Of a stretch of 64,000 nt of DNA, positions 35,656-63,197 are shown in pieces. A program made the position numbers and the translations under genes. Each line of letters begins with the position of its first letter. Positions within the stretch are counted from its first letter, which is position 1. Location: assembly GCA_963715865.1 (NCBI GenBank), contig OY970280.1:832001-896000 (forward strand), read 5' to 3'. The notes under the pieces were generated by a model. The model saw only the letters and a program-made list of their open reading frames with translations. It searched no databases and was not told the origin of the DNA. This stretch comes from Candidatus Bathyarchaeota archaeon (GTDB taxonomy: Archaea > Thermoproteota > Bathyarchaeia > Bathyarchaeales > Bathycorpusculaceae).

Positions 35656-35702
35656 TGGTGGGGCTGGAGATCCTTGAACCCAAAAGGGTTCAAAACCTTA
35701 TT
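35656..35702 (-). repeat. tRNA-3'-like repeat plus hairpin, copy A
   Basis: TGGTGGGGCTGG then TTGAACCC-AAAA-GGGTTCAA-AACCTTATT; 35674-35702 identical to 54248-54276. Confidence 0.8.
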
Positions 35703-35750
35703 GTTGCCAAGTGGTCTTTTCTCTCAAGCTTCAAATTCAGCGAGTGTAGT

Positions 35751-35789
35751 GTGGACCGGACCCGGCTTACCCGAAACGGGTATGAACCC
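35751..35789 (-). repeat. tRNA-3'-like repeat plus hairpin, copy B (Ala-like end)
   Basis: GTGGACCGG...TACCCG-AAA-CGGGTA-TGAACCC. Confidence 0.55.
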
Positions 35790-35814
35790 TCGCCTAAACT
35801 TGAAGATTTAGTCT

Positions 35815-36501
35815 TTACCTATGCTTTTCTAACAGCATCTTTAGGACATCTTCATCCGTTAAGTCGTACCAGTTCACGTAGGCGTTTGCGACAGCGAATG
35901 ATGGCCCGCTTCTTATGTTGAGGCACACGATCTCATCTACTTCGGGAGCGAGCAGTTCGATAGCGCCTAAGGAAGCTGTGGGCACAGCGACGATTATTTT
36001 TTTAGGTGCTCTCTCCCTCACAGATCTCGCGGCAGCCAGCATAGTAAAGCCCGAGGCCAACCCGTCGTCGACGAGTACCACAACCTTGTCCTTTAAGTCG
36101 GGCATGGGTTTATCTCCCCTGAACTTTCTAAGCCTCTCTTGAATATTTCTCTTGGTCCTCAAGATTGACGTCTCCATCTCTTCTTCTGTCAGGTCTAACT
36201 GCTCAATCAGGCCTTCGTTTAGGACAATTTTGCCATCCCACGTTATCGCGCCAAATCCGGCTTCAGTGTTCCATGGAATTTGAACCTTCCTAACCACCAT
36301 CACATCCATCGGGACAGCGAGTTCCTTCGCGACCGTATAACCCACTGGAACTCCACCGGCAGGCACAGCCAAGACGATTACATTTCCGTTACCAGCGTAT
36401 TCTCGGAGTTTGTAGGCCAAAAGCTTGCCAGCCTGAAACCTGTCCCGAAATACAGATACGCGGTCTCTGTAAGCTGGATTCTCAATGATCTTCGCAGTCA
36501 T
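35815..36501 (-). CDS. Phosphoribosyltransferase-like protein
   Basis: 'FRDRFQAG', 'LAVPAGGVPV', PRPP motif 'VVLVDDGLASGFTM'. Confidence 0.92.
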   Translation of the reverse strand: MTAKIIENPAYRDRVSVFRDRFQAGKLLAYKLREYAGNGNVIVLAVPAGGVPVGYTVAKELAVPMDVMVVRKVQIPWNTEAGFGAITWDGKIVLNEGLIEQLDLTEEEMETSILRTKRNIQERLRKFRGDKPMPDLKDKVVVLVDDGLASGFTMLAAARSVRERAPKKIIVAVPTASLGAIELLAPEVDEIVCLNIRSGPSFAVANAYVNWYDLTDEDVLKMLLEKHR

Positions 36502-36651
36502 AACCTAAACCTTACAGGGATAAATTATGAACTACACCTGATTTATCCTTACCTTTCAGACTATGCCAGTTGCTGTTGTGACCCGAATCGGATCCAACAA
36601 GCCCTTATATCGCGGAAATCGGAAATGTTCTTGCTAATTCTGGTGGAACAA

Positions 36652-37180
36652 ATGAAAAAAATGTTAATTTTGGTAGAAAACGGCGTAGAGGATTCAGAAT
36701 TCATTTACCCGTACTATCGATTTCGAGAAGAAGGCTACAAGATGGACATTGTTGCGCCCAAAGCGAAGAAGGAGTACATCGGCAAACACGGCGTGCCATT
36801 TACTTCGGAGATTTCACCTAATGAGGTGAATTTGGATGATTACGATGCAGTGATCATTCCCGGCGGTCAAGCCCCTGACCGTATGCGTATCCATCGAGAC
36901 CTAGTGGAAATGGTAAGGGCAGCAAATAGCAAAGGAAAAATTATCGCTGCGGTTTGCCATGGGCCTCAAATGCTTATTGAGGCGGACATTGTTCGAGGAA
37001 AGACAGCTACGAGTTGGCCTTCTGTTAGAACGGATCTGAGAAATGCGGGTTTTAGATGAACCTGCCGTGGTTGATGGAAACATTGTGACTTCGCGCTCTC
37101 CCGATGACTTGCCAGATTTCTGCCGAACAACGATAAAGCTCTTGGCTACTTTACAGAAGGATTCGGAAAAAGACGTCTAA
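36652..37180 (+). pseudogene. pfpI: PfpI/DJ-1 family protein, frameshifted near 37050
   Basis: 'EDSEFIYP', 'IPGG', nucleophile 'AVCHGP'; tail 'DEPAVVDGNIVTSRSPDDLPDF' in another frame to TAA 37180. Confidence 0.85.
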
Positions 37181-37578
37181 ATAAAAGAGGAATCTGCGGC
37201 TCAACCATAGAAACGCTAATCGGTGAAGAATGCCATCTGTTTGCAAGCTATTTAAGAGATGAAAAGAAAGAAGGGTTCCAAGAGTAGGAATAACCGTCCA
37301 ACCAAAAATATACTCTCAGATGACCCGATTTCTCGATAAAACTCAATACTCTTAATGAGTAGACGTTTTTTTAGAATATTGTTATCTGAACGCTTTCACT
37401 TTTACCATATACTCTACTGTTGGGCAAGGTAGTTTGGTCATTCATTTATATGAGATTTGAGCCCTAAAGCATGCGTTTATAGATACCTAAAGAAACTACC
37501 ATAGCGCGTTTGATGGTTTTTAGGATTTGTAAAGTTTGTAATTGTTGACGTGCAGTCACAAATAGATATAGAGACGCA

Positions 37579-37977
37579 TTGAACAGTTTCTTAAATGGTT
37601 TTATAATGCTTGAAAGCCATATTGAGGAAAAACAGCGACCTAATTCTTCTGCGGTTGCCCAATCACGTAGAGCTTTGAGCGTTGTCAAATATGATTGTGG
37701 CTTCCATTTTTATATCACCCTTGGAAACTATACAGGGGTAACTGCAACAAGCCTTCAAGACTTAGCTCAAAAAATGCGGACAGTCAGTCTTGATTCTATT
37801 AAGTTCCATTTCGAGCGCGGAGATTTTCAAAGATGGATAAGATATATTTTCTGTGATCCTGAATTGGCAGAACGCATAGGGCTAATCAGCCCTGAGTTTT
37901 CAGCTGAAGATCTCAGAAAGGAGATCATAAATAAAATCGAAAGTCGCTTAATCCAATTGAAAGAGATTGCTAAATAG
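37579..37977 (+). CDS. DUF5752 family protein
   Basis: 'FHFY...TGVTATSL', 'SIKFHFERGDFQRWI', 'EDLR'. Confidence 0.82.
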   Translation: MNSFLNGFIMLESHIEEKQRPNSSAVAQSRRALSVVKYDCGFHFYITLGNYTGVTATSLQDLAQKMRTVSLDSIKFHFERGDFQRWIRYIFCDPELAERIGLISPEFSAEDLRKEIINKIESRLIQLKEIAK

Positions 37978-38043
37978 ATATGCCGCTCACGATGAGTTAG
38001 CCGTAGAAGGCATATATGGACTGTTGATTTAATCTGGCTTAAG

Positions 38044-39300
38044 TCAGAGCTTGGAAAGCCTAACCGATAAAAAGGGAATGATCATTTCTTCGCTTGTCAT
38101 GCCTCCATGCGTTCCTAACTGTTGATGAACCCTATCATCTTCAAAGAAAGGATACTGCAAAGCGTTTTGCCTAGTGCCTAAAGCTGTAAAGTCTCCAACT
38201 TTTTCCTTTAGCCCTTCAGGATCCATCGGTTGCCCGAAGGCACCCTTATCGATTAATTCATTAGAGGAAAAAAGCTTGAACCCTTCAATGTTCTTTTTGA
38301 AGGCATCTGGAAAAGACTTGAGTTGACCTGGCTTTGAAAAAAGAAAAGTTGCTCTGCTATCACCAACTGGAGGCAGCATCAGTCGCGCCATTACTTCACT
38401 AGCATCCTTTAAGAAGTATGTTTTTCGTGTTTCCGCTACTCCATGGTCAGCCGTCAAGAGCATTAACGTTTCCTTCTTTGTCTTCGCTGAGAGTCCGCTA
38501 ATAAAATTCCTAATATCATGTTCTAAAGAGGTTAATTCAAAAGTTACCTCTTCTGAGTATGGCCCATATCTATGCGCAAGAGTATCAATCCCACTATAAT
38601 ACATTACAAGTAAAACGGGCTCTTGCTGTTCGAGCGCCTTCCTTGATCGCACTAGCATGTCAGACCCCAACAGGTAAGGTATCAACTTTTGGTCTTTATG
38701 TATAACCTGAGACAACCCGCTTCCAGCAATCGATGCTTTAGTCGCAACTAACGTTTTAACACCATTTTGTTCCAGACGGGGTAGCCATGGCTTGATATTT
38801 TGCGAGTAGTCTTTAGCTAAATCAACTTGGCCACTGTAACCATAAACTGGCCTCATATTCAAAGTATCGAAAACCAAGCCGTATTTTTTAGAGAACATGT
38901 GATAGCCAAGTATTTGATGTTGCGCAGGTGACAGACCGGTGAATATGCTTGCTAAGACAGTTGAAGTTGTCGAGGGAAAAACTGTAGTTAAAGGTTTAAG
39001 AGTACCTTTCTCAGCCAACTCCATGAAAGTTCCGTCATGGCTGTTTAGATGAGAAAGAAAACGCTTATACCCCAACCCATCCAAAATAAGTAAAACAAGT
39101 TTCTTGACGTCTTGTAAATCATCAAAATAATCATTAGGAAAACTTGGCGCGCCATGAGAGGTTATACCAAAAATTGCTCCAATTTGAGGCAAAATATTCT
39201 TAACATTAAGCCTTTGATAGTCAGGCAAAACAAAATCTTCATCAAAAGACCGCTCCCTTGAGAGAATTTCCATTTGCTCTTTAAAAATATCAGTTCTCAT
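38044..39300 (-). CDS. Alkaline phosphatase superfamily / nucleotide pyrophosphatase-phosphodiesterase
   Basis: 'LILDGLG', 'TVFPSTT', 'DTLAHRYGP', 'TADHG', 'GTHGG'. Confidence 0.92.
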   Translation of the reverse strand: MRTDIFKEQMEILSRERSFDEDFVLPDYQRLNVKNILPQIGAIFGITSHGAPSFPNDYFDDLQDVKKLVLLILDGLGYKRFLSHLNSHDGTFMELAEKGTLKPLTTVFPSTTSTVLASIFTGLSPAQHQILGYHMFSKKYGLVFDTLNMRPVYGYSGQVDLAKDYSQNIKPWLPRLEQNGVKTLVATKASIAGSGLSQVIHKDQKLIPYLLGSDMLVRSRKALEQQEPVLLVMYYSGIDTLAHRYGPYSEEVTFELTSLEHDIRNFISGLSAKTKKETLMLLTADHGVAETRKTYFLKDASEVMARLMLPPVGDSRATFLFSKPGQLKSFPDAFKKNIEGFKLFSSNELIDKGAFGQPMDPEGLKEKVGDFTALGTRQNALQYPFFEDDRVHQQLGTHGGMTSEEMIIPFLSVRLSKL

Positions 39301-39339
39301 TAAGCTCTATCAAAATAATAATCCGTTAAGGAATATTAA

Positions 39340-39680
39340 CTTTGAACTCGTCAAAGCGAGCTCTCACTTGTTTAACAATAAAATCTCTTAAGGCTTCTCC
39401 TTTCAAAGTGGTTCTTCCCCTTATGCTTAACAAGCCAAAACAGAGTCTTCCAGTGTATCTCTTGCCCATCTTTCAAAGTCTCAACGATAATAATGAAAAG
39501 CCAGCGATAGATTATCGATTTTTTCTATTGCCTTAGCAAAATCTGCCAAGCTATTCGCTTTTTCCCCAATTGCGTGTCCTATGGCTTTGTAGAAATAGAA
39601 GCTTTCTTGATCAGAGAGTGTTCGTAAAACCTTGTTAACGTCAACCTGAAATGGTACTTGTTCGCCGCCACAAGATTCCA
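39340..39680 (-). pseudogene. Second DUF5752 gene, disrupted
   Basis: 'FYFYKAIGHAIGEKANSLADF...FHYYR*DFERW' (TGA for Gly at 39481), then a frameshift to 'LKGEALRDFI'. Confidence 0.8.
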
Positions 39681-39838
39681 GAACTGGAAATTGACTCATA
39701 ACAACATCCACCAAAAAAGCAGTCATCAAAAAGAACATACTAGCATTTGTGGCTACACAAACACACCAACATACACTCATAACACTAAGAAAAATTACCA
39801 AAGACATAGCCTTTTCAAAACTTGGCAGTGGATAGTGC

Positions 39839-40033
39839 TTGTTAGATAATAATGCATACAACCTACTAATGCAACTAACGCAGGAGCACAAGATGCTCTG
39901 GCGAATAAAAAACAGTTACAGAAAGATGCCAAAGCTTGCTCTGAATGCAAAGAATTTTGGGCTAAAACTCGAAAAGGAAGGAGAAGAACGCAATGAACGC
40001 CTCGAACAACTCCTAAAGCCACACATCAAATAG
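39839..40033 (+). CDS. Small ferritin-like/helical protein with two compensating frameshifts
   Basis: 'MLDNNAYNLLMQLTQEHKMLWRIKNSY'; shifted frame between ~39920 and ~39967 reads 'DAKACSECKEFWAK'. Confidence 0.65.
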   Translation: MLDNNAYNLLMQLTQEHKMLWRIKNSYRKMPKLALNAKNFGLKLEKEGEERNERLEQLLKPHIK

Positions 40034-40089
40034 CCCAAACAAAGCGATTGCTTACACTCTGTTAATTCTAATCTATAGGAGGTGGAAAA

Positions 40090-40641
40090 TTGACTGAAGA
40101 AAAAAAGAAAATGTACTACTACTATGGCGGCAAAGAAAAGAAAGCCGGTGAAATAAGAAAGCGAGAAGAAGAGATAGTTCCGTACTCTTTCCAACGAGAC
40201 TTTGACAGGATGATGGAAAGGTTCCAACGTGAATTTAATGACTTATGGCAAGGGCCTCCAAAAATGAGGCATTGGATACAGTGGAAACACGGATTTCCTA
40301 TGATGCCTTTCGGGCAAACAATGATGCCATCTGTTGATATAGAAGACCGCGGAAAAGATTTCCGGTTGACTGTTGACCTGCCTGGCTTCAGTAAGGAGAA
40401 TGTTGAAATTGAAGTTGCCGAAGACGCGATCATGATTCACGCTAAAAAAACTATGGCAGAAGAAGAGAAACAGAAAAACTATGTCCGCAAAGAAAGAGCC
40501 GCTCAAACATATTACAGAAGAATTGAGCTGCCTGAAAAGGTGCGCTCAGACGATGCAAAAGCAAGCTTGAACAACGGTGTACTTGAGATTGTCTTGCCAA
40601 AGAAAGAGCCTAAGGAAACCAAAAAACTAATCCCAGTGTAA
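40090..40641 (+). CDS. hsp20: Small heat-shock protein (Hsp20/alpha-crystallin)
   Basis: 'VDIEDRG...VDLPGFSKENVEI', 'ASLNNGVLEIVLPK'; GGAGGTGG SD. Confidence 0.95.
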   Translation: MTEEKKKMYYYYGGKEKKAGEIRKREEEIVPYSFQRDFDRMMERFQREFNDLWQGPPKMRHWIQWKHGFPMMPFGQTMMPSVDIEDRGKDFRLTVDLPGFSKENVEIEVAEDAIMIHAKKTMAEEEKQKNYVRKERAAQTYYRRIELPEKVRSDDAKASLNNGVLEIVLPKKEPKETKKLIPV

Positions 40642-40782
40642 ACAAAAAAGAGATCGTTCAACCTATCAAGGTTTTCCTTTTTTTTCAACCCTTGTAAGTG
40701 CTTAATAGCAACCACTTAGTCTTAAGAAATCTAAACGACAAACTAACTTTATTACCAAATTATTTAACTAACATCACACTAA

Positions 40783-46939: not shown

Positions 46940-47303
46940 AGCAAGCCAGCATCTCAAACGGCGAGAGCCTCAGCAGGATAGTCCAAAATGCTACGTTGAG
47001 AACGGTTTCGGGTTACAGGATTGTGCCGCCGCTTAGTACAGGATCTGAAGCAAGACTACTGATGAACGAATATCTCAGACAGGTGTATCGTGGGCAATGA
47101 CGATTTTTGTACAACTGCTTGACTTGACCACTGGATTCATCAACTTCTATGGAACACTCGGTTGTGTCCAGCCGAGAAGAGTGGGCGATCTGCAACTCGT
47201 AAACTCGATAGCCATTTGATGTCGAGTAACCGAGACAAATTATTTATTAAATCACGCTGCTTTTGCGGGGCAGGGGTGCGACGAGCCGAACTTGAACCCA
47301 AAC

Positions 47304-47436
47304 CAGACTGCGTGAAAACTCAAACCGCGTTCAAAAAGTTGCGCTCTACGTGTATATGCAGCAGCGTCCTGCTACCAACATTTTTCACACAAAAAAAGCA
47401 TTTTCCTGAAACTCAATCGAGTTTTTACACAGTCTC
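47304..47436 (+). mobile_element. MITE copy 1 (133 bp), IS1182-like ends
   Basis: TIRs CAGACTGCGTGAAAACTC / GAGACTGTGTAAAAACTC (15/18), AAAC duplicated at 47300-47303 and 47437-47440, inside TTGAACCC...GGTTCAA. Confidence 0.8.
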
Positions 47437-47680
47437 AAACAGGTTCAAGCCCCAGACCAAACGCAAGCAGTTAAACTCTTGTTTAGTCTGTAAACTTAGG
47501 GTTTGCTAAATCTAGTCTCAGCCTTCACCGATTAAGAGTAAGTTGTTCTGCCATAAATGACCTTCGGCAAATTTAGTGTCGTTTCTGAAATTGTTCACAT
47601 GGGGTAACCTGAACTCCTTTTGTGGTCTGAGAACACATATTACAATAAGCCTTGGCAAAAGTTTCTCGCAAGTTGAAACT

Positions 47681-48745
47681 TTATTCAAATAGGGGTGAGA
47701 GATCTTGAATTCCATAATGAGATTCAACTAACGCTGTCGCTTTTTTTATAAACACATTTTCAAGAATACTTCTGAATTTTTCCAGATCTTCTAAATTCAA
47801 TTTGCAAGATGTTTTTCCATGAATGAGGTTGTTTCGCTCACTCCTTAATTTACGTATTAATTGTTGGTCGTTGCTCGTCAGAGATACACCCAACCTCTCC
47901 AGTAGCTTTTGCCATTTTACCATTAAAGGCGGTTCATTCACTTTCTTTAATGTCTCAACCAAGGCAACCTCTTCTTGAAGTGGCAAAGCAAGATTTTGAA
48001 CTGCCAAGATACTTTTGTTGATATTTTCCTTTTTAGCAAGTTTGGATACTTTTTCATTAGTGCATAGGAACTCGAACGCAATCCAGAGTTGAAGTAAATT
48101 ATCAATTAAAGATTCTATTTCGAAAGACTGCATAAGCCAACTGAGTGTTTCATATAGCGATTGAACACTTTCATTATACTGACTCTTAATTTGTTCCAGC
48201 TTGTCAAGCGTTGGAATTAATGGATCGAAGAAATCTTGAGGACTATGATGGAAAACTAACTGATGTCCAGATTGCACATTCAGTAAGTTGAAGACTGCGC
48301 CTTTTGTTATTGAATCAATAGCCAACCCATAAGGTATTAAATGACACTTTGAGAAAGCTTTACTCATGTTATAATTCAACAGTACTTTTTTGCCATTATC
48401 GTTTATAGAGGGTAAAGTAATATCTGTTCTAAATTGTATCCAATCCACCGCTCGTTTAGTAACTGTCTCAGCCTTAGTTAATGCATCTAAATAATGTTCG
48501 GCAGTCACTTCGACCACGGCAAACGATGGATTGCCCTCCCAAGGTTGATTTCCAAGTGTTTTAGAACCTCTTATTTTATCAGTTAATATTTTGCTGATGT
48601 CATTAGTAAATAGAACTTCCTGTATCGTAAACTCAGATGGAAGAATAAGCCCACGTATCGGAAAAATAACTTTGAAGTTACGTTGAACTAAAAGGGGCTG
48701 ATTACCACCATGAAAAATGGGGGGCAAGTTTGTTGACTTAGCCAC
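47681..48745 (-). CDS. HEPN-domain protein (ApeA-like), putative defence RNase
   Basis: 'LLQLWIAFEFL' helix and RxxxxH motif 'RNNLIHG'. Confidence 0.72.
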   Translation of the reverse strand: MAKSTNLPPIFHGGNQPLLVQRNFKVIFPIRGLILPSEFTIQEVLFTNDISKILTDKIRGSKTLGNQPWEGNPSFAVVEVTAEHYLDALTKAETVTKRAVDWIQFRTDITLPSINDNGKKVLLNYNMSKAFSKCHLIPYGLAIDSITKGAVFNLLNVQSGHQLVFHHSPQDFFDPLIPTLDKLEQIKSQYNESVQSLYETLSWLMQSFEIESLIDNLLQLWIAFEFLCTNEKVSKLAKKENINKSILAVQNLALPLQEEVALVETLKKVNEPPLMVKWQKLLERLGVSLTSNDQQLIRKLRSERNNLIHGKTSCKLNLEDLEKFRSILENVFIKKATALVESHYGIQDLSPLFE

Positions 48746-48797
48746 AAAATAAATAGCATCTTGGGGAGATCTTGAAAAAGGCGATGCAAGTGAAGAC

Positions 48798-49340
48798 TCA
48801 GTTCTGTTTCTTTGCTACGCGGTCTTCAGGTTTAGGCGTAGGCAAACACAAAGCTGAAAAAACACTTTCCTCTGTATCTCCAGCCACCGCAACTTTATCT
48901 TTTGTCAACCCTTCGCTGTACTTCAACCTAAAACCTTTTGACAGGGCATAACTCGCAAGCCACATGTTATGATCTGCTGAACCCGTACGGATAAGCTCTT
49001 GAATGCCAAACGTTTGCTCAGTTGCACGGTAAAAATCAACTTGAAAAAGGCTGTTTTCAAAGGGATAGTTTAGTTTTATCACGCTTTTTCCCGCACAAAT
49101 AACCTTAGCCTTCTTTAAGGCTTGAACAATTTTGCCCCAGTTACATTCAGTTCCAATAGCAACAAAATCCACGTCACCAACCGTTGGCCTCTGCCGTCTG
49201 ATGGAGCCAACTACCTCAAGCTTATCGCATAATGGCTTGACTACACTTTCAACTTGTTTAGCAAGTAGCTGTGCGTTTACTAACTCAAGCTTTGTTAAAA
49301 CATTAGGCTCTTCTTCGCCGAACAATTTAGCCTGCTTCAA
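48798..49340 (-). CDS. Minimal PolX / DNA polymerase beta-like nucleotidyltransferase
   Basis: 'VGSIRRQRPTVGDVDFV', 'QVDFY', 'RTGSADHN', 'TEESVF...LPTPKPEDR'. Confidence 0.85.
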   Translation of the reverse strand: MKQAKLFGEEEPNVLTKLELVNAQLLAKQVESVVKPLCDKLEVVGSIRRQRPTVGDVDFVAIGTECNWGKIVQALKKAKVICAGKSVIKLNYPFENSLFQVDFYRATEQTFGIQELIRTGSADHNMWLASYALSKGFRLKYSEGLTKDKVAVAGDTEESVFSALCLPTPKPEDRVAKKQN

Positions 49341-49487: not shown

Positions 49488-49660
49488 ACTTTCTCAACCT
49501 CGGGAAGCAACCCTACTTGCAGAACTAGCTTATAGGCAATATCGACTAAATGACAGCACTATTTTAGCTGACTAATGCCTTTTCATCATCAATTGTAAAC
49601 AAAAATATGAGTTAAAGGTCTCTGTTTCCAGTCAACGATAATAGGCAAATGCCTCTAAAA

Positions 49661-49706
49661 GGTGGCGAGCCCGCTGGGATTTGACCCCAAATGGGGTCGG
49701 AACCTA
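49661..49706 (-). repeat. tRNA-3'-like repeat plus hairpin, copy D
   Basis: GGTGGCGAGCCCGCTGGGATTT-GACCCC-AAAT-GGGGTC-GGAACCTATA. Confidence 0.85.
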
Positions 49707-49802
49707 TAACATGGAATCAACAACTTCCGAGAAGACACTGGAAAAACAATACAAGCCCTCCGGCAAACAATTTTTCAAAAAAAACAATTCTGTTTTTTTA
49801 TA

Positions 49803-49842
49803 GCGGGTCCGATGGGATGCGCTTAAACTATTAAGCGAATTC
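49803..49842 (-). repeat. tRNA-3'-like repeat plus hairpin, copy E
   Basis: GCGGGTCCGATGGGATG-CGCTTAA-ACTA-TTAAGCG-AATTC. Confidence 0.8.
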
Positions 49843-49932
49843 CACGAGTTATGAGCATAGAAGCAGTCGTTCCTTTGTTAACGAAGGTCAATCTCTCCGT
49901 ATCTCTTGCTTTCAATAGATAGTAAGAGCAAC

Positions 49933-52102: not shown

Positions 52103-53101
52103 TTAAGATGATTCTCTTACAGCAAAGAGAGTTTCCATCTTTTTCTGGTAATCTCTAAAACCGAATCCTGGATAAATCAAAAGAGTTTTTGGTTCAGCGA
52201 CTACGCTTTTTAGATACCCCTCATAGATTTTCTTGTTGTTTTTATCTTCCAAGAAATCCATTATTTGATTTAGCTGTTTTTCTCCAGCTTCACCAAGCTT
52301 CTTTTCTATGTTATCTATCTTCTCATCAAAGTTCTCAGAATCTTCCGAGTAGCGAAGCGGATTAGTTAGCGAGATTTTAATGCTTCTGAATAAGTCTTCA
52401 AGGTCCCAAGGTTGAAATATGCTGTTTTCTGCTTCTTTGAGTTTTTTTAGATGTCGCATAGCTTCGTAATAAACTGCTTGATCCGTTGGTTCACCTTGCT
52501 CTGGAAATTCTTTCTTCAAGCTGAAACGTGCGACAAGGGCAACCTGATTCAATCTTGCTGTTTCCACTTCTTTCTGTTCTTGTCGGCAAACAAGATTATA
52601 GGCTTCCAAAAGTAGCTTTCTGTATCTTAATATGATTTCATGTTCCTTAGGACCGCGCTCTGAAAGAACAAATTTTTCCCATATGTTCATAATTCTTTCT
52701 TCGACTTCAATAAAAGGAGAACCCTTTGAAAAATCGTCATCAATTAGCTTTCTAAGAATTGGTGAATCTGTAACAATCAGCCAACGAAAGTAGTAAGAAA
52801 GCCCTAATTTATTTTTGTCCTTTTCATGCAGCTGTTTGGAGAATTGTTCATTCAAGAATTCAGAAATATCACTGAGGAACATAGACTCTAAGCCTATTGG
52901 CTTTCTCTCAAATTTACGGGTTTCAATATTTCTTTCAATTAAACCTAGACTTTGAAGATGTTTTAGGTAATCGGAAAGGAGCGTAGGTTGATGAGAAAAA
53001 CCAGACAATTCCCCTATCTCTTTATTCCTTTGTGGCCCTTTTTCCAGAGCCTTTAATATTCTTATTTCGCCAGGAGCCAGTTTCCTCTCCTTACTTTTCA
53101 T
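52103..53101 (-). CDS. Winged-HTH protein with long helical C-terminus
   Basis: 'RILKALEKGPQRNKEIGELSG...LLSDYLKHLQSLGLIER'. Confidence 0.8.
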   Translation of the reverse strand: MKSKERKLAPGEIRILKALEKGPQRNKEIGELSGFSHQPTLLSDYLKHLQSLGLIERNIETRKFERKPIGLESMFLSDISEFLNEQFSKQLHEKDKNKLGLSYYFRWLIVTDSPILRKLIDDDFSKGSPFIEVEERIMNIWEKFVLSERGPKEHEIILRYRKLLLEAYNLVCRQEQKEVETARLNQVALVARFSLKKEFPEQGEPTDQAVYYEAMRHLKKLKEAENSIFQPWDLEDLFRSIKISLTNPLRYSEDSENFDEKIDNIEKKLGEAGEKQLNQIMDFLEDKNNKKIYEGYLKSVVAEPKTLLIYPGFGFRDYQKKMETLFAVRESS

Positions 53102-53237
53102 TAACTACACCATAACTATAGAAACTACAGTATAAGTATATTAGTTTTTCTTGGATTTTAACTATGATTAATGAGAAGTAACAAATGCCAAACATTAGAA
53201 AATTAATGAAACTTTATTACGGCAAAGAACCACGCGA

Positions 53238-53768
53238 GTGGTATATACTTCACAGGTTTTTCGGAGGGATTCTTTGACTCAATCGTTTAATGTCATGATT
53301 TGCGCTTCTCAAGAAACGCATCCAGACTTCATTAAATGTGCTGAAGGTGTTTGCAAAAAGAGACGATATAATATGATTTTCTCTCCATACAAATCACAAG
53401 AAAAACTTTTAGAAAAATTCGAAAACAGTTTACCTGACGCCAATATAATTTTAATGGACGTAACACCTCAAGAGCTTAAAGATTCAGAAAATAAAACACA
53501 CTACATTACAAATCAAGGAGTACTGATCGAATTTGGGTATATCATTGCCTTAAGAGACTATTACAAATTTCTTTACATTTTTTGTGATGCAACTAAGCTA
53601 GAAAAAACACACCCATATGTTCGAAACGAAACCATCAACAAATATTCAAAAGACAATCTGAGAGAAAAAATTCTCGGAAAAGTTGACGAACGCCTAAAAA
53701 GAATACCTTGCGAGTACATTACAGATAGAAAACGAATTAAAAACCTAGAAGAAAAAATTCTTAGATAA
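53238..53768 (+). CDS. Nucleoside-deoxyribosyltransferase/TIR-like fold protein
   Basis: 'IILMDVT...NQGVLIEFGYIIAL' matches the D-x-T...N.(G/N)V..E.GY..AL signature. Confidence 0.65.
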   Translation: MVYTSQVFRRDSLTQSFNVMICASQETHPDFIKCAEGVCKKRRYNMIFSPYKSQEKLLEKFENSLPDANIILMDVTPQELKDSENKTHYITNQGVLIEFGYIIALRDYYKFLYIFCDATKLEKTHPYVRNETINKYSKDNLREKILGKVDERLKRIPCEYITDRKRIKNLEEKILR

Positions 53769-54107: not shown

Positions 54108-54181
54108 CGGGTCATACAAAGGATTCGCTTAATGTTATTAGCGGGTCCGATGGGATTTGAACCGTGTTGGGTTCAAGCCGC
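54108..54181 (-). repeat. tRNA-3'-like repeats, copy F preceded by a degenerate copy
   Basis: GGATTCGCTTAATGTTATTAGCG overlapping GCGGGTCCGATGGGAT-TTGAACC-GTGTTG-GGTTCAA-GCCGC. Confidence 0.8.
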
Positions 54182-54231
54182 ATTTATCGGACAACGCTTC
54201 TCCCGAACCAAACCAACATTCTATCTTGAAT

Positions 54232-54276
54232 GCGGACCCAGTGGGATTTGAACCCAAAAGGGTTCAAAACCTTATT
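54232..54276 (-). repeat. tRNA-3'-like repeat plus hairpin, copy G
   Basis: GCGGACCCAGTGGGAT-TTGAACCC-AAAA-GGGTTCAA-AACCTTATT. Confidence 0.85.
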
Positions 54277-54373
54277 CAAATAAGAAGGGATAATCTTCTC
54301 GTCTCAAATAGGAGCGGGCGGAAAAGAAGACTGACAACTCTGCTAATAAAATGTTAAGAATTATCCTCCAAAA

Positions 54374-54410
54374 GCGGGCCCGCTGGGACTCGAACCCCGC
54401 GGGGCGAATA
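54374..54410 (-). repeat. tRNA-3'-like repeat, copy H
   Basis: GCGGGCCCGCTGGGACTCGAACCCC-GC-GGGGCGAAT. Confidence 0.8.
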
Positions 54411-54482
54411 TGTACTATCCACCTTTTTCCATGCACAAAAATTTAAACAGAGAGCCGCTTTTCGTGTATTAGAGGAAACTAA

Positions 54483-55648: not shown

Positions 55649-55692
55649 GGTGGCGAACCCGCTGGGATTCGTTTAATTATTTAAGCGAATCC
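55649..55692 (-). repeat. tRNA-3'-like repeat plus hairpin, copy I
   Basis: GGTGGCGAACCCGCTG-GGATTCGTTTAA-TTAT-TTAAGCGAATCC; first 20 nt match copy D at 19/20. Confidence 0.85.
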
Positions 55693-55715
55693 TTTGTCTT
55701 AACCACAAACGAATA

Positions 55716-55746
55716 GTGGATCGCTGGGATTTGAACCCTAGGACAA
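55716..55746 (-). repeat. tRNA-3'-like repeat, copy J
   Basis: GTGGATCGCTGGGATTTGAACCCTAGGAC; similarity reaches the variable-loop GTCC. Confidence 0.75.
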
Positions 55747-55895
55747 GTGGAGATATCTCCCGCGCCATCTTCCCTCTTTTTCTTTTGGCTAAAGAAAACT
55801 CGGTTTTTCATAACCATTTCATTTTTGATTCTCGGATAACGTTCGTGCTGGAGTCGCATTTTTTATTATTCATACTTGCAGCTACGCCAGTCTCG

Positions 55896-56108: not shown

Positions 56109-56168
56109 TTTTAACTCAATATCAAAGGTCTTAAAATATTAATCTTCAAGATATTCTAGATAATTGCT

Positions 56169-56740: not shown

Positions 56741-56761
56741 GTGCAGCAAGAGTTGGTTGGA

Positions 56762-57400: not shown

Positions 57401-57734
57401 TTACATGCAGTTCCTTTATATGCCTTATCTGCTTGAGCAATTTTTAACATTTTAGCTTTCATTACCAGTTAATGCCAGACTTATCCAGACCTTGTGATGC
57501 TTGCGGTAAGATGATTGGCGGAGGCTTTAAGCACTGCCCAAGATTTCAAATCTACTTCTGCTATACCTGTTGGATTGAGCTAATGTATATTCAAAAGAAG
57601 CTTCCGCTTGAATGCCCTATGTGCGGTGGAAAGCTTATTATTCCTTAAACTACGAGCGCGCTTAAGCAACCAGACTCTCAAGCGTCCATACGAAAACTAC
57701 AAAAGACGTAAATCGCCGATTGGAGTAGTGCTCA

Positions 57735-58184
57735 TTGATATGGATGAAAGGCTTAAAATTAATTCCATTCGTATTAATCTCTTTAGTTTTCACCTTCCTC
57801 GCTCTTGGTGTAGCCTACGGGGAAACAACCTCTACTACAGTTCAAAATGTGCCTTCCGTGAATGATGTAACTACTTCAACAACAACGACTTCCACAACAA
57901 CAACTACATCAACAGTGACTACATTCACTGACTCAAATGGGATAGTACATCATGCCTACAATATATCGGTGTCAGAATTAACCCCCACTATGTTAACATC
58001 GGCTACCGTAACTACATCGAGTGGATTTATAGTACCTGCGCGTGATGCAGACTCAGATCCGTCCCAAGGATACGTTTTCGATTACTTGAATTTTGAATAT
58101 GCAGGTATCATGCTAACAGGGATTATTTCTGCATTACTACTGTTAAATGTACCTCATCCAGTTAAAACCTCAAAAGTAAAGTGA
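57735..58184 (+). CDS. Small surface protein with Thr-rich linker and C-terminal TM
   Basis: Signal peptide, TTSTTTTSTTTTTS tract, C-terminal hydrophobic helix. Confidence 0.78.
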   Translation: MIWMKGLKLIPFVLISLVFTFLALGVAYGETTSTTVQNVPSVNDVTTSTTTTSTTTTTSTVTTFTDSNGIVHHAYNISVSELTPTMLTSATVTTSSGFIVPARDADSDPSQGYVFDYLNFEYAGIMLTGIISALLLLNVPHPVKTSKVK

Positions 58185-58194
58185 ATCGCGCGCA

Positions 58195-58800
58195 TGCTTG
58201 TTCCGAAATTAGTTGGCGAAGTATCTAATGCTTCTCGTTTTGCCAATTTTGTTTGTGTTAACGGCGGCTTGAGCCGTAATCAGCATGATTAGAATGCAAA
58301 GTTGAGAATGAAACGTTAAATTGGTCAAACCTCGCAGATTGTGTTCTTTTAAGCCTGCTAGGTTCTTGAGTCTGCTGAAAACCCGCTCTACAGCCACCCG
58401 TTTCTTGTATGCTGATTTGAATTTTCGTGGTCCGTGACTCCTAAACTTCCGATCAACTCTCAATATGCCTTTAACGCCTTTACTCTGATTCCTCGGATAA
58501 GGAATAACCGGCAACGCTCCACACTCCAATGCTGTTTCCCTCAGATTTGCTGCGCTGTACTGTGAGTCAGCCAAGAGCTTCCTTGGTTTTACGTATTCTG
58601 ATGCTTTCGCAAACAGGCTTATGGAATGTTTCTTCTCGTTCTCGTTTGCCGAAACCACAATCATCGCAATCGGCAGCTCACTTTTGACGTCAACAGCCAA
58701 ATGAAGCCTGTAACCTAAGTCTTTGGATTTGACTGCTCTTCCAATCCTTGATTCAGGATCGCTATAGCCTGTGCGGTCAAGGTTTCGCCTTTTATCTCGG
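58195..58800 (-). mobile_element. 5'-truncated DDE transposase (IS4/IS5-like) with possible right end
   Basis: 'DPESRIG...LGYRLHLAVDV', 'LADSQY', 'YKKRVAVERVFSRLK'; frame hits TGA at ~58810; GCTTGTTCCGAAA just beyond the stop. Confidence 0.85.
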
Positions 58801-58975
58801 CTTTCTCAAAATCACGTAAAAGGTACATTTCAGGGTCTTGCCTCTCCATGATGTTAAGGCGCGGGTTATGTGTCTCTTGTTGGATGATTAGGCGATGAGT
58901 GGTTAACCAGCCTACACCATTTGCCAGCTTGAAGGATAAGATTGTTTTTTCGCCTGGGAAGCCGTCAAATTTCAT
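58715..58975 (-). pseudogene. N-terminal fragment of a PH-like small protein truncated by the IS fragment
   Basis: 'GVGWLTTHRLII' pattern; the 3' part is transposase DNA read out of frame. Confidence 0.5.
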
Positions 58976-59428
58976 AATGCTCTTTTAGTGGCTTACCACT
59001 ATTTTGATTTTTCCCATTTTTATCGACTATCTCTTAACAATCCGTAGGAAAGCATTGCTTTCAAGCGTTTAGCGAAAAGTATTTTGGTTCAATTCCAGGG
59101 CGTAACAGTAAGGGCAGAAAGTGTATAGTCAATCAGGACTAACCGCCAAAGTCGGCTTACTATACTAAGAAAAAAGCCATAGCGCCAAAACATCAAGCAA
59201 TACCTCTTTCTTTTTTAATTTATCTCGAAGGCAAAGTGTTTGTTCGTTTCTTGTCGTAATCACCATCTTTCCGCAAGTTTTATATTTGTCGTCACCATTC
59301 AATTTTCAATATTTTCACTATTTCCAAGGTTTTATAAGTAAGTTGGAGACAGAGAGGGCTCTATTGGGCGAGAGCATTTACGCTTCTTGCTCGATAAAAA
59401 ATAAAATTATAGGAAAGGAAAAACACAA

Positions 59429-62080
59429 ATGAAATTTGCTAAAAACAAAACTATTGCTATTGCAATCGCTATATTCTTAATGCTTTCAATGACAGCTTCA
59501 ATGATGCTAGTTCCGGCTAATGCTCACACACCGGCATGGCAGGTTCCTACATATGCATTCATCAATGTCGCACCTAACCCAATAGGGGTAGGGCAACAAG
59601 TCTCTGTAACATTTTGGCTTGATAAAGTCCCGATCGGTGCAGAAGGGCAATGGGGATCAAGATGGCATAACATGAAAGTAACTGCTAAGGATCCTGACGG
59701 AACCAACACAACAATAGGCACGTTTAACTCTGACCCCAACGGCGGTGCAACAACATATTTCACTCCGACAAAAACAGGCACCTACACTTTCTACTTTGAG
59801 TTCCCAGGACAGATAGCACAAAATGAAAACCCATACCCATACGTAGGATTCATCGGACTTGGACTTGACTACGTCAACGACACTTTCTTACCAAGCAGCG
59901 CCTCCACAACACTTACAGTACAGTCACAAGCAATCTCCTACGCTTATGGAGCATCCCCCCTTCCAACTGCATACTGGACACGTCCAATAAACTCCATGAA
60001 CAGAGAATGGGCACCCATCACTGGCAACTGGCTAGGCCTTGGAGCAACATCCTTTGGCGTAACCGGCATGTACACTGACACTGGAGGAGTAACCTCTGCA
60101 GGAGGAAACTTTGACCCATACTCAACAGCACCAAATAGCGCCCACGTCATGTGGACGCAACCTATAGCGTTCGGCGGTCAGATTGGAGGAGAATTCGGAA
60201 CCGGCGACGCAGCTATCTATGCCACTGGAACAGCTTACGAATGCAAATTCGGCGCCGTAATACTAAACGGAATTCTCTATTATACCGAGTATCCGGGCGC
60301 AGGAACCAACCCATCAGGTCTGAAGGCTGTTGACTTAAGAACTGGCGCAACAGTTTGGGACAAGAACATCACCGACCCGCTAAGATGCGGCATGGTAACA
60401 AACTTCCAAACCGGCGACCAATACGGAGGACACGCATACCTGTTCACTACAAATTCCTATGAAGGATTCGCTGAGCCTTACTCTGCACTCACCGCACCCA
60501 CTACTTGGGGAATGTACGATGCAATGACCGGAGACTGGATACTAAACATTGCAGGTGTACAAGCCTCTGATGATCTTGTAGAAGGTCCAAACGGAGAAAT
60601 ACTATGCTACTACGTTAACAGCTCATCTACAACCGGTGCAGCCTCCCTTAGCATGTGGAATTCATCTTTATGCATCGCGCAAGGCTCCCAGTCAAATCTT
60701 TTCTATCTTACTTACAGCGCTAAAGAAATTTGGCGACCCGTGCAAGGAGCAACTATCCCATGGAGTGCAGGAATCCAATGGAGCGTACCCATCGCGACCA
60801 GTATCAATGGTGTTTCAATGGCTCCATACACTTTAGGCGTAGCAGGGATCGACAACAACACCATACTTATGACCGCGACTACAGGAGGAATATTCGCCGG
60901 ACCACCAGGCGGAGCATCATTAGGCTTCAGATATGATGCAGGTTACAGTACAACAGGTCAACTGCTTTGGGGTCCAGTGAACCGCACGTTAACACCATTC
61001 ACTACACAAGTTCTGTCAGTTGGTGACGGAAAATACGCTGAATACACTCAACAAATGCTGACGTGGACAATGTACGATCTCAAAACTGGAAACAAACTAT
61101 TCACAACGCCACAATCGAATAGTTCCTGGAGCTACTATGACTTCACTGGTCCAAGCACTTTTGGATACGGAAACTTCTACACTTGGGGCTTAGGTGGAAC
61201 AGTATACTGCTACGATGACACTACCGGTCAACTTAAATGGAGTTGGTCCGCTGGAACAGCAGGTCTAGATACCCCATACGGAACCTGGCCTTTAGGTACC
61301 TGGTCAAGTCACCATATCCTTGCAGACGGCAAGCTCTATGTTAGAGCCGGACATGACTACACTCCACCAGTCTTCAAAGGTGCAAAGATTTACTGTATCA
61401 ACGCTACAACTGGAAAAGAAATTTGGGACTCACTTAGCTTCGACATCGTAAGTTCGCCTGCACTCGCAGATGGATACATGGTCTGGGATAACGGCTATGA
61501 CAACCAAATATACTCTTACGGCCAGGGACCAAGCGCATTGACTGTTTCAGCGCCTAGCGTTGGCGTGACAACCTCTACGCCTATAACTATAAGCGGCACC
61601 GTAACCGACATCTCTGCCGGAACAAAACAAGACGCGGTAGCATCGAACTTCCCGAACGGTCTTCCATGCGTTTCTGACGCAAGCATGAGCAGGTGGATGG
61701 AATACGTTTACCAGCAGCAACCATGCCCAACTAATGTGACTGGTGTTCCAGTTACCCTAAGTGTTCTTGACTCAAACGGCAACTACAGACAAATCGGCAA
61801 CACCACAAGTAATGCAGACGGCTTGTTCGCTTATACTTGGACACCTGATATTCCAGGCAGTTACACTGTCATCGCTAACTTTGCAGGTTCAGAATCGTAC
61901 TATCCATCATCCGCTGACGCAGCCTTCTATGCCAGTTCTCCAGCGCCAACAGCATCTCCATATCCAGTGACCGTTTTGCCTCCGACTGAAATGTACATTG
62001 GCGCAGCAGCAGCCGCAATAATAGTTGCAATAGCCATAGTCGGCGTTATAATAGTAATGATGCTTAGGAAGCGACCATAA
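59429..62080 (+). CDS. Large secreted PQQ-like beta-propeller surface protein with C-terminal Ig domain and TM anchor
   Basis: Signal peptide, 'NPIGVGQ', W-containing propeller blades ('LKAVDLRTGATVW', 'CINATTGKEIW'), 'WTPDIPGSYTVIANFAGSESYYPS', TM plus RKRP; TATA TTTTATAA at ~59331. Confidence 0.92.
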   Translation: MKFAKNKTIAIAIAIFLMLSMTASMMLVPANAHTPAWQVPTYAFINVAPNPIGVGQQVSVTFWLDKVPIGAEGQWGSRWHNMKVTAKDPDGTNTTIGTFNSDPNGGATTYFTPTKTGTYTFYFEFPGQIAQNENPYPYVGFIGLGLDYVNDTFLPSSASTTLTVQSQAISYAYGASPLPTAYWTRPINSMNREWAPITGNWLGLGATSFGVTGMYTDTGGVTSAGGNFDPYSTAPNSAHVMWTQPIAFGGQIGGEFGTGDAAIYATGTAYECKFGAVILNGILYYTEYPGAGTNPSGLKAVDLRTGATVWDKNITDPLRCGMVTNFQTGDQYGGHAYLFTTNSYEGFAEPYSALTAPTTWGMYDAMTGDWILNIAGVQASDDLVEGPNGEILCYYVNSSSTTGAASLSMWNSSLCIAQGSQSNLFYLTYSAKEIWRPVQGATIPWSAGIQWSVPIATSINGVSMAPYTLGVAGIDNNTILMTATTGGIFAGPPGGASLGFRYDAGYSTTGQLLWGPVNRTLTPFTTQVLSVGDGKYAEYTQQMLTWTMYDLKTGNKLFTTPQSNSSWSYYDFTGPSTFGYGNFYTWGLGGTVYCYDDTTGQLKWSWSAGTAGLDTPYGTWPLGTWSSHHILADGKLYVRAGHDYTPPVFKGAKIYCINATTGKEIWDSLSFDIVSSPALADGYMVWDNGYDNQIYSYGQGPSALTVSAPSVGVTTSTPITISGTVTDISAGTKQDAVASNFPNGLPCVSDASMSRWMEYVYQQQPCPTNVTGVPVTLSVLDSNGNYRQIGNTTSNADGLFAYTWTPDIPGSYTVIANFAGSESYYPSSADAAFYASSPAPTASPYPVTVLPPTEMYIGAAAAAIIVAIAIVGVIIVMMLRKRP

Positions 62081-62312
62081 AAATGCCAAACAAAATCCAC
62101 TTTCCCCTTTTTTAGTCTCTAGAAAGCAATGGAGAAGAAATGGGCTGAGAAGGCTCTGGTTAAATTAACGATTGACCAATAGCAAATCGAAATAGCATTT
62201 GCATTCTTTTCTCCTAAAGAGTGTTCCAGAGCCTCAGCAAACCCTAAATGCTCAAAGATGTCGCCAATCAGTCATTGTCTTTTTTTAGGAAACATGGTTT
62301 AGTCTTTCCAAG

Positions 62313-62346
62313 TGGCGCCGGGAGAGAGGGATGAAGATTTGAATCC
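62313..62346 (-). repeat. tRNA-3'-like repeat, copy K (Ser-like end)
   Basis: TGGCGCCGGGAGAGGG...TTTGAATCC; reverse complement ends CCCTCTCCCGGCGCCA. Confidence 0.7.
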
Positions 62347-62411
62347 TTGAAGCGTCAAAGGAAAATTCGAATTTAGGTAAATAATTTTTATGTAAGGTTC
62401 CACTAGACTTT

Positions 62412-62437
62412 GGGTTCGGAGCCCAGCGGCCCCGCCA
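62412..62437 (+). repeat. tRNA-3'-like repeat, copy L (opposite orientation)
   Basis: GGGTTCGGAGCCCAGCGGCCCCGCCA. Confidence 0.75.
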
Positions 62438-62501
62438 TTAAGAAAGCGATTTGGCTGACTCTAAAAAACTGTAAGATAAAGATTGCGGCTTGAACCCGTT
62501 T

Positions 62502-62631
62502 GAGAGTGTGTGAAAACTCAAATTTAGTTTTAGAAATTGCAGCTTATATCTAAAAACACGTCCTGGCACCCTACCGAATCGACGTAAAAGTAGCAATTTT
62601 CTGAAATTGAAACTAGTTTTCACACAGTCTC
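62502..62631 (-). mobile_element. MITE copy 2 (130 bp)
   Basis: TIRs GAGAGTGTGTGAAAACT / GAGACTGTGTGAAAACT (16/17), GTTT duplicated at 62498-62501 and 62632-62635, inside CTTGAACCC...GGGTTCAAG. Confidence 0.82.
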
Positions 62632-63197
62632 GTTTGGGTTCAAGTTCGGCTCGGCCCATATTAGACTCAACCCCGAAGCGGTCTGAGTCCCAATTTGTTA
62701 CGCCACTAGAAGTATAGGATTATAAGTACGTACTCGTTTCTTTGAAGGCGGATCATTTTAAGTAGCAAAAGCCACAGGCACAGATATTTAGTTTTTTCAT
62801 GTCTGTCGCCTGCAAATTGAAGACTCTAACTTGCTTATAAAATGAGCCGAAAGCTTATTCCATCTGCAAAAATGATGAATCCTTATACTGCATAGTAAGT
62901 TGCGAAAGTTATAAGGAAGTAGAGCGCGTGTGGTGCATCATATTATCAGAGAGAATATCGCAATTATTTCTAGGGCTATTCCGATGATGTGTAACTGATC
63001 AAACTTGTTGCTTCTCTTTACTGTTTCCATTTTTTCATTTCCCCGTTTTGCTTCTCAGCTGGAATGCCGAGACAAAGCGTACTTTCATCAATGTTGTTTG
63101 GAAAGGTTGTGATTCCTTAGCAAGTTTCGATTCACTTGGAACCTTTCGAGCTCGCTCCCTTAAACTGAAGGTAAAGGGCTGCTGGATTTGAAGAATT

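Follow-up and report, generated by a model that had tools for sequence, protein, structure and literature searches.

Dispersed tRNA 3′-end repeats in a Bathyarchaeia genomic island are probably att sites of tRNA-targeting tyrosine-integrase elements

The genome of a Candidatus Bathyarchaeota archaeon (GCA_963715865.1, contig OY970280.1; a single contig of 2.35 Mb, 42.8% GC, 97.9% complete) contains a dispersed family of short repeats that resemble tRNA 3′ ends, and we describe here the copies in one stretch of 64,000 nucleotides (genome positions 832001–896000), referred to throughout as the window; site coordinates are in window numbering unless marked as genome coordinates. We conclude that the repeats are probably attachment (att) sites of the attR or attP type, whole or decayed, belonging to elements that target tRNA genes with a tyrosine integrase. 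The observations that carry this reading are the identity of the fragments to host tRNAs, the adjacency of integrase genes to tRNAs, the predicted recombinase fold, the position of the island edges relative to synteny, attP-like units in front of related integrases, and homology breakpoints in the T-loop and T-stem. The repeats are in this sense of a known kind, the stacked and decayed att sites of tRNA-integrating archaeal elements (PMC6563490), and what is distinctive here is the T-arm-mimicking architecture of the arms, the heterologous tRNA ends, and a miniature inverted-repeat transposable element (MITE) that seems to target the site spacer. An earlier reading of the window from its letters only (the sequence-only reading) had left the choice between att scars, a loosely integron-like cassette platform, and a family of the REP/BIME kind (repetitive extragenic palindromes and their mosaic elements). 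Its att-scar half is supported by the tRNA ends with their arms, the tRNA-adjacent integrase, the breakpoints at the island edges, and the arm-fragment units found before integrases.

All eleven repeat copies described in the sequence-only reading exist, either exactly at the coordinates it gave or a few bases from them, and the proposed likeness to tRNA 3′ ends is borne out, as the copies match the 3′ ends of the host genome's own tRNAs (44–48 genes were used for comparison). Each comprises T-loop, 3′ strand of the T-stem and 3′ strand of the acceptor stem, and several keep the CCA. The sites and the features associated with them are as follows.

35652–35705, minus strand: site H, TTGAAC-N8-GTTCAA (35674–35693) and a tRNA-Pro(CGG) 3′ end with CCA (35656–35670); left edge of the island.
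35751–35790, minus strand: site I, palindrome TACCCG/CGGGTA at the place of the T-loop in an Ala-like 3′ end (fold z = −0.69).
47277–47456, no strand assigned: att palindrome with a Val-like end, split by a MITE of about 130 bp inside it (terminal inverted repeat, TIR, GAGTTTTCACACAGTCTC), with a 5-bp CAAAC duplication.
49659–49708, minus strand: site E, arm GGTTCCGACCCC-ATTT-GGGGTC and an Arg(CCG)-like 3′ end with CCA (52.9 bits).
49801–49845, minus strand: site A, palindrome (GGAATTCGCTTAA/TTAAGCGCATCC) and 16 nt of the tRNA-Arg(TCT) 3′ end.
54109–54184, minus strand: site B, arm GCGGCTTGAACC-CAACAC-GGTTCAA and 23 nt of the tRNA-Arg(TCT) 3′ end (47.2 bits).
54226–54275, minus strand: site C, palindrome GGTTTTGAACCC-TTTT-GGGTTCAAATCC and an Arg(TCG)-like 3′ end (fold z = −2.99).
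54277–54373, minus strand: 100-bp 'mini cassette', a putative P′ arm remnant and integrase promoter region that has lost the integrase gene.
54372–54415, minus strand: site D, arm ATTCGCCCCGCGGGG and an Arg(CCG)-like T-arm and acceptor strand.
55649–55700, minus strand: site F, palindrome GGATTCGCTTAA-ATAA-TTAAACGAATCC and an Arg-like 3′ end with CCA (fold z = −3.72).
55716–55765, minus strand: site G, truncated Arg-like T-arm behind a GCGGGAGATATCTCCAC arm (class 1).
62313–62350, minus strand: site J, Ser-like 3′ end with CCA and no clear hairpin.
62405–62441, plus strand: site K, oppositely oriented, Pro(GGG)-like in its T-arm and acceptor strand and keeping CCA (18 bits).
62484–62660, plus strand: att palindrome and tRNA-Val(TAC) 3′ end (62637–62658), interrupted by the second copy of the MITE, with GTTTG (5 bp) duplicated.
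63198–64000, no strand assigned: inner end of an integrase-bearing element, with the integrase and tRNA-Gly(GCC) beyond it at window-equivalent 64107–65546.

The fragments at 54141 and 49803 are identical to tRNA-Arg(TCT) over 23 of 23 and 16 of 16 nt, and that at 35656 to tRNA-Pro(CGG) over 15 of 15 nt including the CCA; the fragment at 62637 agrees with tRNA-Val(TAC) at 21 of 22 positions. Ends of the Arg(CCG/GCG) type are found at 49663 (Arg(CCG)-like, 25 of 27 nt), 54374 and 55658, with an Arg(TCG)-like end at 54232, and the ends at 62313, 35751 and 62412 are Ser-, Ala- and Pro(GGG)-like. Across these Arg, Pro, Val, Ser and Ala ends identity to tRNAs of the same genome is either exact over 12–23 nt or 92% over 25–27 nt. 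At least five tRNA types (Arg, Pro, Val, Ala, Ser) are mixed within the island, and the matching tRNA genes are all elsewhere in the genome, none of them near the window fragments. The change of orientation reported at about 62.35 kb is also seen, with minus-strand copies before it and plus-strand ones, K (62412) and the Val end (62637), after it, and the 29-mer said to be common to 35674 and 54248 is exactly identical at the two positions and recurs at genome 197595 and 219231. Several of the sites share further sequence. One example is a half palindrome GGATTCGCTTAA (54121–54132, plus strand) that follows the Arg end of site B, and others are the common downstream flank of sites E and F, the recurrence of the site A unit at genome 197720 and 1585886, and the retention of site I in a duplicated copy at genome 219 kb.

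About 50 tRNA-end fragments are present genome-wide, and they are not evenly spread: seven matches at E ≤ 0.01 fall in 27 kb here against about 28 in the other 2.33 Mb, a roughly 17-fold difference in density. Approximately half of the fragments sit 1–7 kb downstream of their own tRNA on the same strand, which is the position of an attR; these include Lys(CTT), with 30 of 30 nt, Lys(TTT), Ala(TGC), Val(TAC), Arg(CCG), Arg(TCT), Gly(TCC), Leu(GAG) and Cys. A cognate attL tRNA and attR fragment can be paired at about 12 other loci of the host genome. The remaining half, including every fragment in the window, are away from their own tRNA. ARAGORN, which misses some tRNAs in this genome, reports no tRNA in the window, and there is no Rfam match there.

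The sequence-only reading had remarked on the lack of any full tRNA or integrase, which is correct within the window and fails just outside it, as an integrase gene lies 107 bp, and a tRNA-Gly 1.47 kb, past its end. The integrase is a 435-aa open reading frame (ORF; genome 896107–897414, minus strand) situated 55 bp from tRNA-Gly(GCC) (genome 897469–897546, minus strand). PF00589 has no match in the window and scores the 435-aa ORF weakly (E = 7e-4, below the cut-off). An alignment of 13 integrase sequences contains invariant Arg, Lys, His and Tyr residues in the motifs GLRxE, LRxYF, GHKG and RYTT, and we read these as the predicted catalytic residues. The predicted structure (mean predicted local distance difference test score, pLDDT, of 76.7) is most similar to XerA (E = 9.5e-8) and also matches the integron integrase IntI, XerH, lambda Int, Tn1549 Int and Cre; by its predicted fold the protein is a tyrosine recombinase. 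A paralogue (67% identity) begins 58 bp downstream of tRNA-Pro(CGG), near genome 231 kb, and beyond these two copies the host genome has no further copies or pseudogene fragments. We collected 58 related integrase loci from Bathyarchaeia, Hadarchaeota, Thaumarchaeota and others, and in at least 33 of them ARAGORN places the end of a tRNA 55–70 bp before the integrase on the same strand, while most of the remainder have intron-bearing tRNAs at that place. The tRNAs concerned (Gly, Ala, Pro, Met, Val, Arg, Ile, Lys) are of the same kinds as the fragments of the window. By these related loci the host belongs in Bathyarchaeia, alongside metagenome-assembled genomes from peat and soil. No description of the family was found in the literature searched, and it appears to be uncharacterised so far.

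The organization of these loci is informative about how the repeats are built. Directly after the tRNA, related loci carry a conserved arm composed of N4–8, TTTT and GGGTTCrrAACC, the last of which we refer to as motif M. Three loci with near-identical integrases, designated L040, L041 and L042, differ in what stands upstream of the integrase, and we regard them as decisive. In L042 there is a whole tRNA-Arg(CCG), and L041 (the two are from two metagenome-assembled genomes) is 99.98% identical to it from the T-loop onward, with the tRNA body replaced by a palindrome arm, GCTTAA-TTTT-TTAAGC; this arm is related to that of site F. L040 has the arm ATTCGCCCCGTGGGG directly upstream of the integrase, the same arm as in site D of the window. 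The order in both L040 and L041 is arm, Arg fragment, P′ arm and integrase, and when site D and the 55 nt following it are aligned to the arm-core-P′ leader of L040 the score is 100, compared with 18.5 ± 3.1 for shuffled sequences. The comparison of the three loci together with this alignment therefore indicates that the hairpin-plus-fragment units are the P side of attP or attR sites of this integrase family. Site C is the best match to our site model R1 (58.2 bits), and the 100-bp stretch beside it (54277–54373) is, by the alignment to L040, a P′ arm with the putative promoter of an integrase whose gene is gone. The same ghost module recurs at genome 197.6 kb and 1585.8 kb and in two further genomes, G003 and G038.

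In three cases, which we take as independent, the P arm is the inverse of the P′ motif. The first is in the Bathyarchaeia genome G073 (GGACTTGACCC and GGGTCAAGTCC), the second is in the tRNA-Pro elements (GGTTCTGAACCC in the G003 attR and GGGTTCAGAACC after tRNA-Pro), and in the third the P arm GGTTTTGAACCC of sites H and C in the window is the inverse of GGTTCAAAACC following tRNA-Gly. A palindrome would arise from this arrangement because motif M resembles a T-arm and its inverted form adjoins a T-arm.

These observations suggest a model in which a tyrosine recombinase of about 430 aa inserts elements into tRNA genes, in their 3′ part. Once an element has integrated, the order would be tRNA, P′ arm (N4–8, TTTT-GGGTTCrrAACC), a TATA-like box and the integrase gene, and the far end of the element would carry a P arm made of inverted M, a spacer of 4–6 nt, and a T-arm-like copy running into the 3′ acceptor strand and CCA. 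The integrase may bind motif M as paired sites flanking the exchanged segment, with strand exchange occurring within the segment from T-loop to acceptor. Loose, T-arm-like specificity together with homologous recombination between related elements could then generate both the mixed tRNA ends and chromosomal rearrangements. Within the island several elements would have been stacked, gutted and recombined, leaving behind clusters of sites with Arg, Pro, Val, Ala and Ser ends, accessory genes, an insertion sequence (IS) fragment and two MITE copies, as well as ghost elements in which a P′ remnant abuts the next P arm.

The palindromes themselves fall into a small number of arm types. The claim that a hairpin is fused to most copies holds for eight of them (H, I, E, A, B, C, D and F), in all of which the palindrome precedes and overlaps the tRNA-like part, and does not hold for G, J and K. 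Folding of the single-stranded DNA gives z values from −2.1 to −3.7 for the hairpins of H, C, B and F, and marginal ones (−0.7 to −1.8) for those of E, A, D and I. Perfect TTGAAC-N8-GTTCAA palindromes occur seven times in the genome, three of them within the window, and the same half sites at any other spacing from 2 to 12 do not occur in the genome at all. The arm types are distributed as follows.

Class 3 arm: inverted T-arm-like motif, 15–16 sites in the genome and four intact in the window.
Palindrome arm GGATTCGCTTAA/TTAAGCGCATCC: six full copies and one half copy in the genome, of which two full copies and the half are in the window.
GCGGGnGAnATCnCCAC arm: about 25 copies in the genome, roughly half of them joined to a tRNA fragment.

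We also note a motif AAAAAGAGGG-N6–8-GCGGGAGAnATC(G/T)CCAC with about 25 genome copies (e.g. window 55747 and genome 648038, 1209963 and 1841240). A tRNA 3′ fragment follows about half of these and is absent after the other half, and the opposite strand of the motif resembles a short stem followed by a run of T.

The sequence-only reading had also proposed that the arms vary while pairing is kept, and within the largest class this lacks statistical support. In an alignment of 16 sites of the main class (class 3) the covariation score of 0.172 was reached by 70 of 500 column shuffles and is not significant, and the percentage of paired positions is no better than in the column-shuffled alignments. 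Because both pairing and covariation match the shuffles, the palindrome is to be seen as a conserved inverted sequence and not as a structure maintained by compensatory change. Across classes the pairing is suggestive, coming from about five distinct palindrome types and so from few events. Most likely, the 'hairpin' serves as a pair of protein-binding sites in double-stranded DNA and does not form a structure in RNA or in a single strand.

Comparison with 20–60 genomes of the genus, which have about 70–80% DNA identity to the host, defines the borders of the region. Collinearity with the genus runs to window position 35555, 100 bp short of site H, and is regained from genome 897656, at a point 110 bp past tRNA-Gly. 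Between 35.7 and 64 kb nothing is collinear in 40–60 relatives, and only scattered genes, IS, and a multicopy surface-protein family find matches. The interval from 35.66 to 65.5 kb in window numbering is a 30-kb island, and the expectation that breakpoints in gene content lie at the repeats holds for its outer edges, since site H and the integrase/tRNA-Gly end both coincide with synteny breaks. A second island of this type is present in G073, where tRNA-Arg(GCG) and an integrase border a 60.7-kb island with a cognate fragment at its far end and an interior containing mixed sites and the same MITE; a cognate pair is thus in place there.

The two flanks of the island are not adjacent in relatives, and its ends have different partners. 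In genomes G009 and G006, tRNA-Pro(CGG) comes next to the left flank, and beyond it lies the block found here at genome 231.5–241 kb; the tRNA-Pro(CGG) of G009 represents the empty site. Because the left flank adjoins this tRNA in both genomes, site H is interpreted as the ancestral 3′ end and flank of tRNA-Pro(CGG), that is, an old attR; the same site is located 2.9 kb after tRNA-Pro in G003. In the host genome, tRNA-Pro(CGG) with its integrase is now 636 kb from site H (genome 231425–231502 versus window 35656). At the other end, an exact copy of the 17-nt 3′ end of tRNA-Gly(GCC), behind a class-3 arm, is found at genome 673865 on the other strand, 224 kb from the tRNA. The separation of both the Pro and the Gly ends suggests, therefore, that the island is chimeric, at least one island linked to Pro and one linked to Gly having been joined, with sites of the Arg type between them. 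The flanks of the Gly fragment at 673.9 kb and of tRNA-Gly share a contig in G009 and G007, spaced 42–73 kb apart and, in G009, in the wrong orientation, which is no clean proof. A single inversion, either between the duplicated 3.8-kb blocks described below or between two attR sites, was tried and rejected; neither restores the G009 order and several steps are therefore needed. Integrated elements are known to drive inversions in Archaea (PMC8371274).

The halves of the sites appear to have been reassorted. A 35-nt core around TTGAACCCAAAAGGGTTCAAAACCTTATT is identical at four loci that have four left flanks and two right flanks between them, the left arm of site B and its counterpart at genome 1732491 agree fully as far as ATCCCAT and diverge from there, and the Arg(TCT) end is joined to three arm types. 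The homology breakpoints fall in the region from T-loop to T-stem, a pattern that fits both recombination at T-arm-like sites and repeated integration of related elements. Cores of 29–39 nt are identical where the flanking homologous DNA is 96% identical, and some pieces of the island are 85–92% identical to other genomes of the genus as compared with roughly 70–80% for syntenic DNA. A 3.8-kb block encoding a phosphoribosyltransferase, a DJ-1/PfpI protein and a phosphodiesterase (window 35668–39489) is duplicated, inverted, at genome 216158–219265 with 96% and 87% identity; the two copies share the att palindrome at which they start, and no site marks where they finish.

One way to read this reassortment is that the T-arm-like palindromes constitute a recombination network, in which a few integrases of loose specificity act in trans on dozens of integrase-less segments, swap them between tRNA-linked islands and rearrange the chromosome as a by-product, with the MITE parasitising the spacer. 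We regard this as unlikely; if it were true, it would be a tRNA-fragment-based archaeal analogue of integron cassette shuffling. A related explanation, likewise unlikely in our view, is that of integron-like or trans-mobilised cassettes, with the sites remaining live and the two resident integrases capturing, excising and shuffling segments without integrases in trans. The excess of sites over integrases (about 50 to two) and the reassorted halves (the 35-nt core with its four left and two right flanks, the Arg core with its three arm types) keep a weak version of it alive, and it would also accommodate the identity of the 29–39-nt cores within 96% identical DNA, the retention of ghost elements of about 100 bp in three genomes, and the 85–92% identity of some island pieces. 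Integron attC arrays, including clusters of attC sites lacking an integron integrase (CALINs), likewise have imperfect palindromes between gene blocks and more sites than integrases, and the fold of the integrase found here resembles that of IntI, as it resembles any tyrosine recombinase. However, the genes between the sites are multi-gene blocks on both strands and not single co-oriented ORF cassettes, and the cassettes do not travel as units: the pieces of 54.4–55.5 kb common to five other genomes are 230–370 bp long and are without matching flanking sites, and the duplicated 3.8-kb block has a site at just one of its ends. No covariation favours a folded single-strand site or conservation of structure alone, the sites being tRNA-derived double-strand att sites, and no attI or promoter (Pc) arrangement is seen, the gene next to the integrase being a tRNA. 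Ordinary elements that stack and decay explain the same pattern, and the integron-like platform of the sequence-only reading is left unsupported.

We also considered whether the fragments are functional tRNA pieces, either 3′ halves of split or permuted tRNAs or T-arm/acceptor mimics serving as RNA processing or 3′-end signals. Split and permuted tRNAs do exist in Archaea, CCA is kept in several copies, and some host tRNAs escape ARAGORN. Nonetheless we find this highly improbable, since full genes are present for Arg(TCT), Arg(CCG), Pro(CGG), Val(TAC), Ser and Ala, the fragments begin inside the T-stem or T-loop at variable points, Rfam has no match in the window, and the flanks are element arms that are also met next to integrases. 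A reading of the plus strand as similar to primer-binding sites was dropped, the TGG start being found in some copies only and no sign of a reverse transcriptase being seen. The REP/BIME alternative, palindromes spread between genes by a domesticated Y1 transposase (REP-associated tyrosine transposase, RAYT, or IS200 type), shares with the repeats their short imperfect palindromes in intergenic clusters and both orientations, but is scarcely credible in a single-contig, 97.9%-complete genome where PF01797 (Y1) has no match and no RAYT is present, where copy number is low (seven exact TTGAAC-N8-GTTCAA and 15–16 class-3 sites), where every copy is tied to islands and to tRNA 3′-end sequence, and where distribution is patchy, with model R1 finding sites in only 17 of 60 other genus genomes (0–7 each versus 15 here) and none at E ≤ 1e-5 in the other 43.

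Several observations weigh against att sites of tRNA-targeting elements as the origin of the repeats. There are two integrase copies for about 50 sites, most of which are orphans, and several copies are identical to a tRNA over only 12–23 nt, with J, K and I being weak. No island fragment matches the adjacent tRNA-Gly(GCC), and the island does not contain a cognate attL/attR pair. The P arm of the L040 type is not the inverse of its P′ motif, and the inverted-M rule is therefore not universal. None of the simple inversions tried restores the arrangement of the relatives, and searches of a viral contig collection with one protein and with a 13-sequence profile returned no free (circular) element with this integrase and hence none carrying an attP. 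Among sequencing runs, the best DNA matches cover 5–7% of the sampled words of the stretch, and no RNA run is listed.

Archaeal integrated mobile genetic elements target the 3′ part of tRNA genes, have short att sites and form arrays (PMC6563490). The features in common with the tRNA-gene att sites of tyrosine-integrase elements (the classes of Williams 2002; PMC6563490; PMC8371274) are a 3′-distal tRNA target, an identity block of 12–30 nt, an integrase gene beside attL, the tRNA stem-loop as a natural core-like palindrome, and island edges at a tRNA and a tRNA fragment. The elements described here differ in that PF00589 sees the integrase only weakly (E = 7e-4), the arms mimic the T-arm, in inverted form on the P side and in direct form on the P′ side, and every fragment of the island comes from a tRNA that is not its neighbour. 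Tandem arrays and decayed stacks at a single tRNA (PMC6563490) similarly have co-oriented att-like sites between accessory blocks and internal P-core-P′ junctions, but classical arrays repeat the end of one tRNA, whereas here there are at least five types and most elements are without an integrase. The TKV2/TKV3 inversion (Int-pTN3; PMC8371274) offers a parallel for attL/attR partners that are 636 kb (Pro) and 224 kb (Gly) apart, although a role for the integrase in rearrangement is only a candidate mechanism here.

With the repeats read as att sites, the family becomes a map of mobile DNA in an uncultured and globally abundant archaeal class. The analysis delimits a 30-kb island, points to a widespread integrase family that standard Pfam annotation nearly misses, and suggests the likely attP layout of that family, and it shows that tRNA-linked islands of these genomes are rearrangement hot spots. 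Annotators should treat fragments of this sort as att sites and not as pseudo-tRNAs or new RNA genes. The mixture of tRNA ends and the excess of sites also make the system a good place to probe the specificity of archaeal integrases.

The two copies of the MITE of about 130 bp (47298–47437 and 62503–62636) occupy the spacers of two att palindromes, and they are the only copies in the host genome. TIR-GTTTG-T-arm junctions are also present in G073 (C1:273141 and 273289), and with the same junctions in a second genome the MITE therefore seems to target these att sites.

The island encodes, in addition to the three products of the 3.8-kb block, HSP20, a 2-hydroxyacid dehydrogenase, a TFS-like zinc ribbon protein, a MoxR-type AAA ATPase, a small Pol-beta-type nucleotidyltransferase, a winged helix-turn-helix (wHTH)/PriX-like protein, a weak TIR-like protein, a DDE transposase fragment, and an 883-aa PQQ/Ig surface protein. 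The last of these (59429–62080), with a PQQ beta-propeller and Ig domains, has about 20 paralogues in the genome, several of them beside att fragments; this multicopy protein was at first a candidate for the recombinase and was rejected on account of its domain content. The nucleotidyltransferase (180 aa, with thumb and palm matches) adjoins a 354-aa ORF without a family match (47681–49340), and the two may be an MNT/HEPN-like toxin-antitoxin pair. Similarly, the 332-aa protein with weak wHTH and PriX-like similarity adjoins the 176-aa protein with weak TIR similarity (CAP12/Pycsar) at 52103–53768, and these may be the replication and defence genes of a decayed element. The DDE transposase fragment (58209–59270) is from an IS with copies of 86–90% identity at genome 573.4 kb and 1119.6 kb. 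Outside the island, at 15558–17737, there are three tandem, diverged copies (93% and 66% identity) of a unit of about 790 bp.

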